Assembly (NCBI GenBank): GCA_014905635.1
Contig: JABVCE010000015.1
Span: 62,001-126,000 of the forward strand
Reading direction: 5' to 3'
DNA: 64,000 nucleotides
Source: Scenedesmus sp. PABB004
Taxonomy: Eukaryota
Below are positions 49,871 through 58,445 of this stretch, in pieces (position 1 is the first letter of the stretch; each line of letters opens with the position of its first letter). A program made the translations under genes and the position numbers. The notes beneath the pieces are model-generated. The model saw only the letters and a program-made list of their open reading frames with translations, did not search any database and was not told the DNA's origin.

Positions 49871-51274
49871 TCAGCAGCCGGACGACACCTCCATGCTCTC
49901 CGCGCCGCCGCCGCAGCCGCCGCCGCCCAGGCAGGTGCCCTCGGACGCCACCGACATGCGGTCGTCGTCGCTGGCAGCAGAGCCGCCGCCGCCGCACGCG
50001 CGCTTGCGCGCGCGCCCCGCGCCGCCGCCGCCGCCGCCGACGCCGTCCTCGCCCGCCGCCGCCGCCATGCCCACGTCCGCACGGCCGGGGCCCTCCACGC
50101 TCGCCTGGCTGGGCGGGCGGCTGGCCGCGAGGTCCTCAAGCTCCGCCAGGTCGAGGCAGCTGCCCGTGCCCTGCTCCGAGCCCGGGCCGGCCGCGCCAAA
50201 GCCGGCGCCGGCGCCGGGGTCGAGGAAGCACGAGCCGCCGTCGCTCCCGCCAGACAGCGCGGCCGCAGGCGCGCGCCCGCCGCACCCGACGCTCAGCGCC
50301 GCGAGCAGCGCCGCGGGGCAGGGCAGCCCCGCGGCCGGCCCGGCGCGGCTGCGCCGGCCGCCGCCGCCGACGTCGTCGCAGTCGTCGCACTCGCGCTCGC
50401 GCCCGCGCGCGGCCGCCGCCTCGGCCGCCGCCGCCGCGGCCGCGGCAGCCGCGGCCGCCGCGCCGCCGCGCGCGCCGCCGGCCGCCGCGTCCGCCGCGAC
50501 GGCGGCCGCCGCGGCGGCGGCGTCGTAGGCCCCGTACTGCCGCACCGCGGCGTCGCTGTAGATGAAGGCCTTGGCCGGCGCGTTGAAGCGCACGCCGCCG
50601 TAGCCCGAGGCCGCGCAGACCGTGTAGGCGCCGGCAAAGTTGAACTAGCAGGGTGGGGGCCGGGGCAGCGGGCGGCGGCGCGACAGGCGGCGGCGGCGTG
50701 AGGCAGCGCGCCCAGCCGCAGGCCGCGGCGGCCCGCGCCCGGGCGGCAGCGGCGGCAGCGGCGGGCCAGCAAGACCGCGCCCGGGCGGCAGCGGCGGCGG
50801 AAGCGCCACCACGCGCCAGCGGCGGCGGCGCACCTGCAGGAAGTCTCCGTCCCGCAGCGGCGGCAGCAGCGCCGCCTCGTGCACCAGGTCGCCGTCGCGG
50901 TCGCTGCTGCCCCAGAGCCGGGCGCGCGTGAGCCCCGCGCAGCCGTCGGCGCCGCAGCCGTCGGCGCCCGCGCCGCAGCACGCGCCCGCGCCGCCGTCGG
51001 AGCCGTCGGCGAGGCGCGGCAGCAGCGGGCTGCGCAGCACCGTGTAGGTCGGCTCCAGGCCGTCCACCGTGACCTGGCGCCGGGCAGGGACGCGGCGCGT
51101 ATGAGCAGGCGGGCGCTCGCAGGCTCCGCGCCGCCGACCGAGCGCACGGGCACGCAGGGGCACGCAGGCACATGCGCAGGCACGCACACGCACACGCACA
51201 CACGCACACACGCACACACGCACACACACACACACACACTCACACACTCACACACGCTCGCACGCTCGCTCGCT

Positions 51275-51353
<79 letters not shown>

Positions 51354-53894
51354 GCGCCCAAAGCGCCCCACCTGGATGCGGAAGGCGCCGTAGGTGCTGT
51401 CGCTGAGCCAGTAGTCCCGGAACGGCCGCCCGCCCGCGCACGTGCCGACGCGCTGCCCCAGGATCGCCGTGAAGAGCGTCGCCGACGTCTCGGCAAAGTA
51501 CCTGCGGCGCGGCGAGCGGCGGGTTCAGGGTTCAGGGTTCAGGCCGGGCTCAGGGCTCAGGGCTCAGGGCCGGGCGTGGCTCAATGGGTCGGGCGGCGGG
51601 CCGGCGGCGCGGGCGGCGGCGCGCGGCGGCGCGGCGGCCGCGCCTGCCGGGCTCGGCGATGATGCGCACGCCGCGCTCGGGCGGGAAGTGGCGCGCGAGC
51701 GCGGCGTTGATGACGGCGGCCGTCTGCGGGCGCGCGGGCGCGGGCGCGCGCGGGCGCGGCTCGGACCGCCGCGCGCGGCGCGCCGGCCGGCCGCAGCCCC
51801 ACCCGCCCGCACGGCCAGGCGCGCAGCCGGCGCCGGGCCCGCAGCCACACGCGCGGCGCCGCCGCACCTCGTAGAAGAGGCGCGCGCTCTCCTCGCTGTA
51901 CGGCGCGGTGAAGCCGCCGCCGATGTCGAGCAGCTCGAGCGGCGCAAAGCCGGCGGCCTCGGCGGCGTCAAACGCGGCCGCCGCCGCCGCGATCGCGTCG
52001 CCGTAGACCGCCACGTTGGCGCAGCCGCTGCCGACGTGGAAGCTCACGCCCGACACCTGCGTCCCACGGGCCGGGCGCGGCGCCGGGGGCGGCGGCAGCG
52101 CGGGCTGAGCGGCGGGCACGGAGGCCGGCGGGCGGCGGGCGCGCCTCCGCGCGGGGGCTCGCGGCGGCGCAGGGGCGCGCGGGGCTCAGCCCGTGTCGGG
52201 CGCGGCGCCGGGCGGCGCAGGGGCGCGGGGCTCAGCACGTGTCGGGCGCGGCGCCGGGCGGGCGGCGCACCGTGAGGCCGAGCGCCTTGGCCTCGGCGAG
52301 CAGGCCGGGCACGTCGGCGGGGTCGGCGCCGTACTTCAGCCCCAGGTTGATCTTGGCGGTGGCTGCGCGGCGCGGCGCGGCGCGGGGCGGGGCGGGGCAC
52401 GCCGGCGGCGGCCAAGTTGATCTTGGCGGTGGCTGCGCGGCGCGGCGCTTGGCGGGGGGGGGGGGGGGGGCCCGCGCCGCGCGCGCGCTGCGCGTGCGCA
52501 CGGTCGTCGCAGCGGATGCGCAGCACGTTCTTGAACCCCGGGCAGCCCGCCGCAATCTTGTGGAGCTCGCTGGCGGTGTCAAAGGTCGTGTACTCGACGC
52601 CCGCCTCGCGCGCATACCTGCACGGCGGCGGCGCGGCGCGGCGCGGCGCGGCGCGGCGCGGCGCGGGTGGGTGGTGGCCGCACGCGCCGGGGGCGCGCCC
52701 GCCGCGGCGCGGCGCGGACACGGGCGGGCGCCGCGCCCGGGGGCGCGCGCGCGCGCGCACCGGAAGTCGGCGGGGCGCTTGCAGGGGTTTGCGAAGATCA
52801 CGCGCTCGCGCGGCACGCCTGCCGCGGCGGCGCACGCGAGCTCCGCCACGCTCGCGCAGTCCATGCCCGCGCCCAGCGCGGCGAGCATCTCCACGAGTGC
52901 CGGCTCGGGGTTGCACTGCGGCGCGGCGCGGCGCGGCGCGGGGCGGCGTGATGCGCGCGTGCCGAGCCGCAGCAGACGCCGGAGGTGAGGCCTGCCTTAC
53001 AGGGTTGAGGCGCCGCCCGCCCCGAGCGCCCAGCGCGTTAAAACCCCGAGCGCCCCGCGCGGCCTAAAACCCTGCACCCCGTGTGGCCTTAAACCCCGGC
53101 GCACCTTGACCGCGTAGTAGGGCGCCACGCGCGGCAGCGCCTCGCACCACGCCGCGTGAAGGCGCGACACCTGCGCGCCGCGCGGCGGGCGGGTGCGGCG
53201 CGCGTCGGCGCGCGTCGGCGCGCGTCGGCGCGGCGTCTGACCCAAGCGCCGAACCAACGCGCGCGCGCCCTCTCTCGGCCTCACTCAAAGCAACAAGCAA
53301 CAGCGTTCACGCGCAACAGCAGCGTTCACACGCGCGCCGCCGCACCTCGCCGAGGTCATAGACATAGAGCGTGTCGGCGAGGCCGCCCTCGGCGATGAGG
53401 CCCGACGCCGCGGCCGCGACGCCGGCGGGGCAGCCCGCGGGCACGCGCGCGGCGCGGTAGCGCGCGAGCACGGTCGCGACGGCCGCCGCGCGCGCGGCGG
53501 CGGCCTCGGCCTCGGCCGCGGCGGACGCCGCGGCGGCGGCGGCCGCCGCGGCGGCGGACGAGCCCGCGACGTAGCCGGGCTTGCAGGACGCCGCGGCGAG
53601 CAGGGCGTCCAGGTCCATGCCGTCGTCGCACGGCGCAGGCAGGCCCGCGCCGCGGGGCAGCGGCAGCGACCCGGCCGCGCACAGGGGCGCGGGCGCGGCG
53701 CCGGCGCGCCAGCCGCCGGGCGCGCCGCACGTGGCGGCGCGCTGCGCGCTGCCCGCGGCCATGCCGCACAGGCTCGCGGCCGCGGTGGCGACGTCGGGCG
53801 CCACGCCGCCGGCGGCGGCGGCGCCGCGCGGCTCGCGGCCGGCGGCCATGGCCGCAAAGGGTGAGGCCTCAAACTGCATGCTGCTGCCCGGCAT
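49871..53894 (-). CDS. ODC: Ornithine decarboxylase homolog (fold-type III PLP enzyme) with an atypical active site
   Basis: LYVYDLG, PYYAVK|CN (PLP Lys), GMDCAS, IFANPCK, TTFD..EL.K, KYGA, GVSFHVGSG, LLDIGGGF, IIAEPGRYF, GAYT. The canonical GPTCD is replaced by GSSDRD. Confidence 0.9.
51180..51352. repeat. Compound (CA)n/(CGCA)n intronic microsatellite
   Basis: Visible directly in an ODC intron. Confidence 0.9.
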
Positions 53895-53995
53895 GCTGCG
53901 CGGCGGCGGCGCTCGCGGCGCGCGCCGGCGGGCGCAGGGCGGGGGCTGGGATGGCGCTGCTGCTAGTACGGTGCTTGTGCTCGCGTGGCGGGCTG

Positions 53996-54130
53996 CTAGC
54001 CGAAGCGCGGGTGCCCGTGGCGGCGGCCCTTGCACAGCGTCTGCGCGACCACCTGCACGCCGCGGGCGAGCTGCTTCACGCGGCCCTTGCTACACGTACT
54101 GGTGCAGGACCAACTAGAGCTCAGGAACAT
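53996..54130 (-). promoter_or_regulatory. 44-codon uORF in the putative 5' leader of the ODC homolog
   Basis: ATG at 54130 to TAG at 53996 encodes MFLSSSWSCTSTCSKGRVKQLARGVQVVAQTLCKGRRHGHPRFG. GC content is lower than the flanks; it ends ~100 nt before the main ATG. Confidence 0.55.
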
Positions 54131-55010
54131 TCTGCGGGGGCGCGAGCGGCCGGGCGCGCGCGAGCCGCGAGCGCGGGCGCCGCGCGCGCGGGCGCGGGTG
54201 GCGTGAGCGAGTCGTTCAGCGCGCGCGCCGCGGCGGCGGCAGCGGCGGCGCCGCGCGCTGCGCTGGGGATGCCTGGCAATCCAGGGCGTCCGCCGGGCGG
54301 CGGCCGCTGCCGCGCAGCCGCAGGCAGCCCCCGGCTGCCGCGGCTGCCCGGCGAGCGGCGGCCGGCCGCTGCGGCAGCCAGCTGGCGCGCGGCGGTCGCG
54401 GGAGCCTGCTGCGCCGCCAGGGCGAGCCGGCCGCTGCCACGCCGCGGCCCGGCTGCCGCCCAGGCGCTGGCGCGGCCCCGGGGCTGCGCGGGCGCCGCCG
54501 AACTCGCAGCTGCTCCGCGCCCCCCGCGGCCAACGCCCGCCCCTCTGGCCCCCGGCGCCGTGCGGAGGCGGCTCCGCGCACGCCCACCTCAACGTGTCTG
54601 ACGGGAGGGGCGTGGGCACGGCGAGGGCGCCGCGGAGGTGCCAGCGCTGTGGCTGCGCGGCTGCGAGGGGGCGGGCGCGAGCTGCGCTGCCTGGGGGGCA
54701 ACACTGGCGGCTGCGGGCGTCAGTGGCGGTGGCGCGGGAGGCCGGGGAGCTGCGGGCGCGGAGGCAAGGCTTGGCGCGAGAGCGGCTGCGGGGGCAACGG
54801 ACAACGAGCGGCGAGAGGGAGGGCGTCTGGCTGTTGCGTCCTGAGTGCGCGGCCGGGGAGGGCGGCGCCGCGGCGCGCGGCGTGACGACGGCGGTCCGCC
54901 GCCGGTCGAAGCGCTGCGGCCGGGCGCGTCGGTGCGGCTCGGTTGCAATCCCGCCCGGCGCCGCTCCGTCCTCCACGGGCCGCGCGCTTGCCGTCACACG
55001 CCGCGGCGCC

Positions 55011-55124
55011 GCCGGCCGCACAGCGCGCGCGCGGCAGCGACCTCTGGGCGCGGGCGGCGGGGGCGCCCGCCGGCCGTGCGCGCGGCGGCTCACAGCAACT
55101 CTGCAACTCACACAAGCGCACAGC
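55011..55124 (+). repeat. 114-bp direct repeat (partner at 58329-58445)
   Basis: GCGGCAGCGACCTCTGGGCGCGGGCGGCGGGGGCGCCCGC..CTCACAGCAACTCTGCAACTCACACAAGCGCACAGC is present at both sites. Confidence 0.95.
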
Positions 55125-55231
55125 CGTCGTCGCCGCCGCAGCAAGCAGTCCGCGCGCACGCGAGCTGAGGCAACTCAGCGACCTCGCCGCGCCTCGCACC
55201 CCTTGCCCCCCTCACTCCGCCTCGGCGCGCC

Positions 55232-57951
55232 TCACCCCGTCTCACGCGCCGTCGCCACACCCGCGGCCAGCGCGCAGCACACCGGCTTGTGCGCGCGCCA
55301 CGCGGCGGCCTGGCAGGCGCGGCTGCAGAAGAACGCGGGCGCGGCCGACTTGACGCAGCCCGCGCACGCGCACGCCGGCCCGCGCACCGCCGCCAGCTCG
55401 CTGCGCGCGCCGATCAGCGCCACGCAGCGCGGGTTGTTGCAGCACGCGCGCAGCGGCAGCGCGGCGCACACCGCGCTGGCGAGCGCCGCCGCCTGCGCGG
55501 CCAGCAGAGGGCCGCGCTCCTGCAGCGCGGCAGAGCAGGCGGCTGCGCCGCCTGCCAGATGCGCTACCAGCTCAACCAGCTCCGCTGTCGCCGTGCGCAG
55601 TTGCGCGTGCTGCGCCAGCAGGCGCTCCAGGCCCGCGCGCGAGGCGTCCGCCGGCGGCCCCAGCGCGCGCAGGCGCGGGCCCAGCAGTGCCGCCGCTTGC
55701 TGCAGAAATCCCAGCAGTGTGGCGGGAGTTGTGAGCCGCGCTGGCTCGCCAGGCCTACCACCAGCGGTGTACGCGCCAGCCGCCGGCTGCGCCGCCAGCG
55801 CCTCGCTGAGCAGCTGCGCCAGCAGCGCCAGGCCGCGCGCCGCGAGCACCGCCCACAGCGCGGGCGGCTCGTACGCGAGCTGGCCGCCGCCGGCGACCAC
55901 GGCTGCCGGCTGCGCGCGCGCCACGGCGTCGCCGATGGCGCAGCCGGTGCGCACCGCCGCCAGGCTCCCAAACGCAAGCTGCGACAGCTGCTTAAGCGAA
56001 TCAGCCTCGCCTGCTGCGCACGGCGCGCCGGCCGCCGCTACGCACTTGAGCCCCGTGAGTAGGCAGGCAAACACCTCGCGCTGCAGCAGCAGGCCCGCGC
56101 CGCCGCCGGTCGCCGTCAGCGCCGGCCCGGCTGCAAGGCTGGGGCCGAGCCGGTGGATGGTGCCCAACAGCGAGGTGGCTGTGGCGTAGGCGACCTGTGA
56201 CCTCCCGTGGCCTGCCAAGGTCCTGACCGACGCCTCCAGCAGCCGGCAGAAGGTGGAGGGGTCCTGCCGCGCAAACGCCGCCAGCGCCGCGTCGGCTGCG
56301 CGGAAGTGGCAGCAGCGTGTGCAGCGGTGGGGGTGGCGTGAGCAATCGCAGGCTGGGCCAGCGCGCAGCGCCAGCTGACACAGCCAGCAGAAGCCAACCA
56401 GCGCGCCTCGCACCCGCCGGTCCGTTGCTGAGCAGCAGAAGCGCGCCACAGCGCTGCAGGGCGGGCTCGGCGGTTTCTGGTCTGACCTGCGGCGCTTGTG
56501 CGCCGCCCTGCCCCGCCGCCGCCTGGCCGCTGCCCGTGCTGCTGCCAGCGGCTGGCGCCAGCAGCGCGGCGGCGGCGGGCCGGGCGAGCGGCAGGAATGC
56601 GCGCAGCACCGCCGCCGCCGCCGCCTGATCGTCGTCCGGGACCTCCACACCAGGCACTGGCCGCAGGCCGCGCATGACGGCGCCGGCGCACGTCGAGCCA
56701 GCAGCCAGCAGGTGCGGCGTCGGCTGCAGCGCCACCAGCTCCAGCGCCGCCTCCGCCGCAGCGGCCGCCAGCTCAGCGGCGACCGCCGCCGGCAGGCCGC
56801 CCCCGCGCGCGCAGCTGGTCGGCCGCAAAATCTCAAACAGCGTCCCAACCGCGAGGATGCTGCACACGCCCAGCTCCTCATCATCCTCACCCTGTGGCAC
56901 CGCGGAGGCGTCCAGCTGCAGTGCACACAGCAGCGCGGCGTGCGCCGCCGGCACGGCGGGCGCACTGGAGCTAGCATCGCTGCTGCCGCCGCCGCCGCCA
57001 CCTGCGCTGGTCGCCCGGCCGCGCTGCGCCTCGTGCCGGTGCGCCGCGCGCAGGGCGAGGTCGGCCAGCAGCAGCCGCTGCATCGGGGGGTCCGACAGCA
57101 GCGCCCGCAGTGCCTCGTCGCTCACACGGCCGTGCTGCTGCGCCAGCACCAGGCTCTGAGCTGTTGACCAGGCTGTGGTGCGTGCCATATGCAAAGCTGC
57201 GTGCACGAGCTGCACGTTAGCAGCGCTCTGTGCGCGCCAGGCGGCGGCGCGGCGCAGCGCGGCGAGCGCCAGCCGCGCGACCGGCTGCACCAGCGGCAGC
57301 AGCGGGCCCTCCAGCTGGCGCTCCAGCGCCCAGGCGTTGTTGACAGCGCACGCCGCCCGCAATAGAGCAAACGCAGTGAGGCATTTCGAGCTGGAAAGCT
57401 GCAGCTGCTGCGGGGCGCTTGATGCCTCCAGCGCCGCGGCGAGGGCAGTGCACGCCGCGACCAGCAGTGGCAGCATGCCTGCGGGTGCGCAGCGGGTGCC
57501 ACCTGGTCAGTGATGGGCGAGGCAGCGGCTCGCGCGGACCCCCCACCGCCGCCAGCCGCCGCCGCTCACCCGCGCGCTCCACCTCGGCCGCCAGCTCCGC
57601 CTTGGGCGCGCCCAGGTCCTTGCGGATGCGGAAGCTCAGCTGAAGCACGTGGCACAGAGCATACATAGTGGCAGCAAAGCCCTCGCTGCCAGCCGCCCCG
57701 ACCTGCGTCGCCGGCGACGCCAACGGCAGCGCGCGCGCCACGGCCTGCGCCAGCCGCCGCTGCACGCCAGCGGCGAGCAGCGCGCTCAGGTCGGCGCAGG
57801 GCGAGCCCTTGTCATTTGCACTGTCGAACAATCCGGTAAAATAGGCGTGCAGCTGCTGCGCGGCAGCGCGCTCGGCCGCGAGCGCGCCGACGCTGCTCGC
57901 GCGCGCGCAGCGGCCCAGCCAGCCCGCCAGGGCCGCCGTCTCGGGCCGCAT
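55232..57951 (-). CDS. Ala/Leu-rich protein with C-terminal MYND-type zinc finger (divergent copy 4, apparently intact)
   Basis: Starts MRPETAALAGWL; ends PLRACCNNPRC..CAGCVKSAAPAFFCSRACQAAAWRAHKPVC. Same overall architecture as copies 1 and 3. Confidence 0.78.
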
Positions 57952-58328
57952 GCTGCCTGGGGCGCGGCCTCGCAGCGCTGGCAAGGGCAAGGGCAGGCGG
58001 GGGCTGGCAGGGCCGCGGCGGCGCAGCGGCGGAGCGGGCGCCGCTGCTGTCGCCGCTCACGCGCGGCCGCCACTCGGCTTCGCCGCAGGGCAGCGCGCCC
58101 GGGCAGGGCGGGCGCACCACAGCGTCTGCGGGGTGAGGTCTAGCCGGGGTGCGGAGGTGTGGCGGCGGCGGTGCGGCGCAAAGCTGGCGGCCGGCGCGCG
58201 GTTCAGGCGGCCGGCGCAGCCTCACGCGCCCGCAAGCCTGGCTGGTGCGGCCCGGTAGACGAGCTGGACCAGCGGTGGAGGGCCTGGCTGGAGGCGGCGC
58301 GGCGGCGCGCAGCGGCCCGCCAGGCGGC

Positions 58329-58445
58329 GCCGGCCGCACAGCGCGCGCGCGCGGCAGCGACCTCTGGGCGCGGGCGGCGGGGGCGCCCGCCTGGCCGTGC
58401 GCGCGGCGGCTCACAGCAACTCTGCAACTCACACAAGCGCACAGC
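58329..58445 (+). repeat. Direct-repeat partner of 55011-55124, downstream of PSF3
   Basis: Differs only by small indels. Confidence 0.95.

Follow-up and report, generated by a model that had tools for sequence, protein, structure and literature searches.

The ODC-like gene and its leader

The stretch of DNA analysed here (the window) comprises 64,000 nucleotides of Scenedesmus sp. PABB004, contig JABVCE010000015.1, positions 62,001 to 126,000. An ornithine decarboxylase (ODC)-like gene was modelled on its minus strand with ten exons, canonical or GC-AG introns, and a protein of 796 amino acids (Table 1). The main AUG of this gene (53894) lies 101 nt downstream of the stop codon of a 44-codon upstream ORF (uORF), which, read on the minus strand from 54130 to 53996, consists of AUG, 43 sense codons, and UAG and encodes the peptide MFLSSSWSCTSTCSKGRVKQLARGVQVVAQTLCKGRRHGHPRFG. 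The initial annotation had described an AUG uORF of this length with a stop, and this was confirmed together with the peptide end given there; the strand is minus. The same bases on the plus strand (53996-54130) form a frame without a start or a stop. The uORF start is the sole minus-strand AUG between 55231 and 53895, that is, between the stop of the previous gene and the main start, and its context is mixed, with A at -3 and U at +4. The peptide ends with His-Pro-Arg-Phe-Gly; the proline at -4 is the only one in the whole peptide, and the C-terminal end is basic. Protein-level and DNA-level searches of the 40-Mb genome indicated that the uORF is single-copy. Duplication of the uORF from another gene was rejected, since no second genomic copy was found.

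Table 1 Features of the ODC-like locus and uORFs of other polyamine genes in the same genome.
Feature	Position	Strand	Details	Basis
Exon 10	49871..50644	minus	Tyr389, low-complexity tail, stop
Exon 9	50834..51073	minus	Asp-Arg replacing Cys360-Asp361
Exon 8	51372..51501	minus	Arg at the Asn327 position
Exon 7	51644..51723	minus	Glu274; followed by a GC-AG intron
Exon 6	51868..52056	minus	His197 and glycine loop
Exon 5	52271..52362	minus
Exon 4	52502..52617	minus
Exon 3	52761..52915	minus
Exon 2	53105..53170	minus	Ends at the PLP lysine (Lys69 equivalent)
Exon 1	53346..53894	minus	AUGs at 53894, 53879, and 53849; N-terminus matches the orthologue start region
Spacer	53895..53995	minus	101 nt, no AUG; 3' end acceptor-like, ending at 53896	AUG scan; by eye
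uORF	53996..54130	minus	44 codons, UAG stop; codons 14-44 with codon usage like the main ORF	Translation, codon scoring
Putative 5' leader intron	54132..54587	minus	About 450-456 nt; acceptor end 54132; branch-like site near 54204; candidate donors 54587 or 54581	By eye against 23 introns
Putative promoter and untranslated first exon	54588..55000	minus	Sense strand C-rich, no AUG	Inferred
Multicopy element	55005..58454	minus	3.3-3.5 kb, terminal direct repeats of about 130 nt, MYND-finger ORF	Repeat, genome, and domain searches
Canonical-ODC uORF	L018 5834-5772 = G000:C1:3388333-3388271	minus	20 codons, AUG, ends Lys-Pro-Pro-Phe-Gly-Arg-stop
AdoMetDC small uORF	L102 2482-2020, G000:C77 about 1166.5-1167 kb	minus	Intron-split, ends Lys-Pro-Ser-stop

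An acceptor-like site ends one base ahead of the uORF AUG, and by eye the 75 nt preceding the uORF look like the 3' ends of the 23 coding-region introns examined in the three ODC genes (89-298 nt, GT or GC donors); GC donors occur in three of the 23. In the canonical ODC gene of this genome, an intron of about 480 nt lies in the leader, after the uORF of that gene. It had been proposed that the 44-codon uORF might continue into an exon further upstream. By eye, an intron ahead of it is indeed plausible, but no AUG was found from 55231 to 54131, so that any upstream extension would require a non-AUG start and the uORF is not the 3' end of a longer frame that opens with an AUG on the same transcript. 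Within the coding region, the exon 5 acceptor and first codons are partly duplicated about 70 nt further upstream (52362-52432, minus strand), and the duplicate is a possible alternative acceptor.

The multicopy element upstream of the putative first exon gave 37 genome matches at E ≤ 1e-30, many of them near full length, mostly clustered on C10 and 70-82% identical. The element has the appearance of a unit that is mobile or has expanded in tandem, inserted between a Psf3-like gene and the ODC-like gene, and its presence there would place the promoter within about 0.9 kb of the uORF or inside the element. The former gene (58543-59818, minus strand) is a probable GINS Psf3 gene with a weak PSF3_N match (E 2.7e-4, below the cut-off); in Chromochloris, a Psf3-domain gene was reported to be bicistronic (PMC7896298 / PMC11291117). 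The predicted RNA fold of the ODC-like leader was no better than that of shuffled sequences (z +0.89; 160 of 200 shuffles as good), and a search of the leader against Rfam gave one match far below the cut-off, which was taken as chance.

To examine the coding signal of the uORF, a codon model was used for which five genes supplied 2,567 training codons; about 100 of these codons were out of frame. The GC content of the uORF is 69% (91/132) against 79.5-85% in the adjoining 200-nt bins, and 40 of its 44 codons carry G or C at the third position (hypergeometric p 5.5e-5), including all 31 in codons 14-44, a split picked post hoc. The synonymous-codon score was 10.6 bits. This score was reached by none of 20,000 dinucleotide shuffles, by 8 of 7,661 overlapping stop-free windows of UTR and intergenic sequence (7,150 bases), and by 5 of 944 intron windows, while 12.6% of 215 CDS windows scored the same or lower. 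The signal is uneven, since codons 1-14 score -8.3 bits and are not coding-like, and the last 30 codons score +16.7; past the stop, A-ending codons are present within a few codons. The antisense frame with the same third positions scored -19.9 bits, indicating that the coding signal belongs to the minus strand, and plus-strand coding of these bases was rejected. Thus, the coding-like composition inside GC-rich flanks noted in the initial annotation was borne out, with codon evidence beyond chance. Two other uORFs of this genome scored -8.8 bits (AdoMetDC) and -5.9 bits (canonical ODC). Because the AdoMetDC uORF scores so low, codon bias is no hallmark of a regulatory peptide uORF; the bias suggests that the 44-codon uORF is translated, without marking it as a regulatory peptide.

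Search for relatives of the peptide, and other polyamine-gene uORFs

A word search yielded no homologue of the peptide, and Pfam gave no match at E ≤ 1. With HMMER against 1.84 billion representatives, one match was obtained (6e-5) to an 821-amino-acid repeat protein, which was rejected as repeat-driven. The ESM Atlas gave no usable match with either the whole peptide or residues 13-44, prokaryote and viral contigs gave no confirmed match, and the peptide was absent from every N-terminal extension in the fetched ODC homologues. As uORFs are seldom gene-called, these blank searches are weak evidence. Orthologous leaders were also sought. Among the best 80 of 563 confirmed metagenome loci, two (L021 and L022) belong to the atypical clade described below, and both begin inside the CDS without a 5' end. 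The viral scan was blank, and the genome-collection scan gave 28 loci, all under bacterial titles. The canonical chlorophyte ODC leaders of L023, L024, and L033, which are partial or unspliced, matched neither the 44-codon peptide nor that of the canonical-ODC uORF, and a second altered paralogue in this genome (L017, on C3) has no upstream AUG by eye.

The canonical-ODC uORF shares Lys-Gly and Pro-x-Phe-Gly with the 44-codon peptide. A common origin was unsupported, since shuffles reached the similarity score in 24-35% of cases (p 0.24-0.35). The small uORF of AdoMetDC lies 93 nt ahead of the main AUG (by eye) and is preceded by a short AUG ORF; a genome search with PF08132 missed it. The presence of this known uORF shows that polyamine-type uORFs exist in this alga. 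As a separate observation, AdoMetDC-like sequence runs in frame into ODC at the green-algal-type loci L025, L055, L058, L059, L063, L073, and L076, and these fusion loci match proteins that carry PF01536, PF02784, and PF00278 (P0093, P0110, P0120, and P0122).

The Cys360-less ODC clade

The genome contains a canonical ODC on C1 and, in addition to the gene in the window, the altered paralogue on C3 (G000:C3, about 357-361 kb). An altered C-terminal site was found in 15 of 120 tabulated database homologues. In all 15, Cys360 is absent (Asp, Gly, Asn, or Pro instead) and Arg occupies the Asn327 position; the Lys69 motif is present in 13, and the remaining two are models without that part. Every other tabulated row in which the motif is present has Thr-Cys-Asp. 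A quick maximum-likelihood tree was built from 52 core sequences (49 fetched proteins and three from this genome, with near-duplicates and most fragments excluded), and 17 altered proteins fell on one branch with SH-aLRT 100. Named members come from Tetradesmus, Scenedesmus, Hariotina, Raphidocelis, and Monoraphidium, and in the databases they are mostly called ornithine or pyridoxal-dependent decarboxylase. Orthologues of the window protein include A0A383WIT1 of Tetradesmus obliquus, GBF87342.1 of Raphidocelis, and KAI8469070.1 of Monoraphidium, and both altered paralogues of the present genome fall in the clade.

Aligned to human ODC, the T. obliquus member keeps Lys69, Asp88, Ala111, Arg154, His197, Gly235-237, Glu274, Arg277, Tyr323, and Tyr389, and the window protein has the same motifs. 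In place of the canonical substrate site (Cys360-Asp361, Asn327-Cys328/Tyr331-Asp332), the window protein has Asp-Arg at 360-361, Arg at 327, and Val near 331. The altered active site, as proposed earlier, is therefore supported, and it is conserved across the chlorophyte clade. The predicted fold of the orthologue P0006 (12 rows) had a pLDDT of 66.8, with the altered loops below 50, and thus gave no information on the pocket.

Like the antizyme inhibitors AZIN1 and AZIN2, the window protein is an ODC paralogue that is unlikely to be a normal ornithine decarboxylase and that exists alongside a canonical ODC. In antizyme inhibitors, five of the sixteen PLP-binding positions are strongly altered, whereas Tyr323, Cys360, and Asp361 are mostly retained (PMC3543441). 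Their signature, the loss of PLP-binding residues such as Ala111 and Arg154 with Cys360/Asp361 mostly kept, was not found in the window protein. The algal clade keeps the PLP side and changes the substrate/Cys360 side, so that it is the mirror image of AZIN; furthermore, it belongs to a lineage without a known antizyme, and a 2007 survey did not detect antizyme in plants (PMC1874602). The suggestion of an AZIN-like circuit is accordingly unsupported, and the protein downstream of the uORF is unlikely to act as an antizyme trap.

The residues would instead fit one of two roles. ODC active sites are common to two subunits, as denoted by primed residues (PMC3543441). This arrangement, together with the intact barrel and the variable residue 360, suggests a half-site heterodimer partner: the ODC-like protein may give its intact PLP/Lys69 barrel to a canonical ODC subunit. 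Otherwise, it may be a substrate-shifted enzyme, and Arg at 327, often also at 361, would suit an acidic substrate. Diaminopimelate decarboxylase provides an analogy for such an arginine and an acidic substrate, and complementation between Lys69-mutant and Cys360-mutant ODC subunits is in keeping with active sites shared in this way.

Proposed leaky scanning and the alternative explanations

We consider it about an even chance (roughly 0.5) that the 44-codon frame is a translated leader uORF that damps the Cys360-less ODC paralogue through leaky scanning. Transcription would start in the stretch that separates the repeat element from about 54590; once an intron of 450 nt had been removed, the second leader exon of the ODC-like mRNA would open with the uORF. 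Scanning ribosomes would meet the uORF AUG first; some would initiate there, translate its 44 codons, and terminate with 101 nt left to the main AUG, while the remaining ribosomes would leak to the main ORF, whose output would thereby be damped. Less certainly, the basic C-terminal end and the proline at -4 might slow elongation or termination in a metabolite-dependent manner, the most plausible metabolite being a polyamine, and the resulting ribosome queue might raise initiation at the uORF. Polyamine-dependent stalling of this kind, dependent on the peptide sequence and added to leaky scanning, is overall unlikely. More doubtful still is the full scheme in which a Sphaeropleales-type half-site paralogue, its partner-side catalytic loop dead, would tune the canonical ODC by heterodimerisation and without antizyme, its synthesis being set by a fifth independently evolved metabolite-sensing stalling peptide that has neither Pro-Pro nor Pro-Ser.

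Several points would also fit a chance or relic ORF that is untranscribed or drifts neutrally, with transcription starting in or after the uORF. The peptide searches gave no sign of conservation, the non-coding score of codons 1-14 and the 8 of 7,661 non-coding windows that reach the uORF score agree with this explanation, the uORF was chosen by eye from 64 kb, and a mobile-looking element lies 0.9 kb upstream. We nevertheless regard it as improbable, as none of 20,000 shuffles reached the score, the GC3 bias is strong (p 5e-5), the genome contains no other copy that could have served as donor, and an AUG and an acceptor-like site mark one edge of the frame and a stop the other. The codon bias, which resembles that of the main ORF and differs from that of the AdoMetDC uORF of this genome, would also suit the first cistron (ORF1) of a bicistronic mRNA, encoding a basic, Cys-containing microprotein of 44 residues with its own function and made alongside the ODC-like protein through leaky scanning. 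The weak start, the absence of an internal AUG, and the short gap between the ORFs are features of algal bicistronic loci. On the other hand, 135 nt is well under the ORF1 medians of 291-357 nt (PMC11291117), no homologue or family was found (Pfam, word search, HMMER, and ESM Atlas), and no ornithine decarboxylase appears by word or gene id among the polycistronic-locus entries listed in the available part of PMC7896298. We regard a microprotein as improbable too, and slightly more so than a chance ORF.

Splice choice, rather than peptide stalling, could set the output if a donor after codon 26 (54052) were joined to the acceptor-like site at 53896. The 157-nt intron would be inside the 89-298 nt range of the examined introns of this genome, and the uORF would then overlap the first two main AUGs in another frame and end at a stop at 53869, an overlapping frame that is present in the ORF list. 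The acceptor-like 3' end of the spacer and the stop-introducing splice choice of Chlamydomonas ODC1 (PMC7534427) favour such a switch. However, codons 27-44 are coding-like rather than intron-like, and the donor hexamer is absent from the 23 examined donors; we therefore consider the switch quite improbable. Least probable is the algal antizyme-inhibitor circuit, in which a dead ODC would trap antizyme and be repressed by polyamines via the uORF. A Cys360-less paralogue with a uORF and a canonical ODC in the same genome would be its components, but the residue pattern is opposite to that of antizyme inhibitors, antizyme is unreported in plants (PMC1874602), a search of the genome with PF02100 (antizyme) gave no match, though the control was uninformative, and the peptide has neither PPW nor Pro-Ser-stop.

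Comparison with known leader-peptide systems

In Chlamydomonas, spermidine lowers ODC activity while the RNA level is unchanged (as cited in PMC7534427), and the splice choice of ODC1 introduces a stop. With ODC activity reported to drop at constant mRNA in a lineage for which no antizyme is known, the 44-codon uORF and the Pro-Pro-containing canonical-ODC uORF are concrete, testable elements in the question of how polyamine feedback operates in chlorophytes. The full-text literature searched, mostly without subscription articles or the primary papers on upstream conserved coding regions (uCCs), contained no chlorophyte ODC uORF and no Cys360-less clade, and the available parts of PMC6356823, PMC7955037, PMC2075485, and PMC9305500 mention no algal ODC uORF. 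If real, the 44-codon frame would thus represent a peptide uORF associated with an ODC homologue, from a lineage with none described in that literature; if it stalls ribosomes without the usual proline motif, it would widen the known rules of eIF5A- and polyamine-sensitive translation. The Cys360-less ODC clade merits biochemistry whatever the uORF proves to be.

A uORF is present in about three-quarters of Chlamydomonas genes (PMC7896298), so that position alone says little. The 101-nt gap agrees with the 93 nt measured by eye for the AdoMetDC uORF of this genome, with the gaps of plant and green-algal AdoMetDC uORFs (66-197 b; PMC2811004, supplement 1), and with the medians of 139-151 nt given for uORFs (PMC7896298). 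In green algae, ribosomes have been shown to leak past weak ORF1 starts (PMC11291117). The locus resembles the green-algal bicistronic loci (PMC7896298, PMC11291117) in its short first ORF, weak start, AUG depletion, short gap, and presumed leaky scanning, and differs from them in that the 44-codon ORF is less than half the median ORF1 length and has no detectable homologue.

The uCCs of ODC and AZIN occur in animals and three fungal groups (Pezizomycotina, Basidiomycota, and Zygomycota), are said to have four independent origins, mostly start with non-AUG codons, and have two adjacent prolines near the C-terminal end; the vertebrate ODC and AZI2 uCCs, a minority, start with AUG (PMC2811004). 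Stalling at PPW with ribosome queuing has been described for uCCs (PMC11550727). Like the uCCs, the 44-codon frame encodes a peptide in the range of 22-100 codons outside the main ORF and upstream of an ODC homologue, on a presumed common mRNA, and its coding signal is concentrated toward the C-terminal end. Unlike most uCCs, which have conserved non-AUG starts in good context, it has an AUG in mixed context; it lacks adjacent prolines, PPW, and Pro-Ser-stop, and chlorophytes are outside the four described groups. By sequence, the canonical-ODC uORF fits the proline signature of uCCs better than the 44-codon uORF does.

The AdoMetDC uORFs, including those of green algae, have a penultimate proline (PMC2811004). 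The 44-codon uORF is similar to this small uORF of plants and algae (CPuORF homology group 3, PF08132; about 35-55 codons) in its length, its AUG start, the nearby putative leader intron, and its position some 100 nt ahead of the main ORF in a gene of the polyamine pathway. It shows no sequence similarity to it, however, lacks the penultimate proline and an overlapping tiny AUG uORF, and has a much stronger codon bias. With its AUG start and single proline at -4, the peptide bears the signature of neither family. Taken together, these comparisons suggest by analogy that the 44-codon uORF may function like the uCC and AdoMetDC elements without being a member of either.
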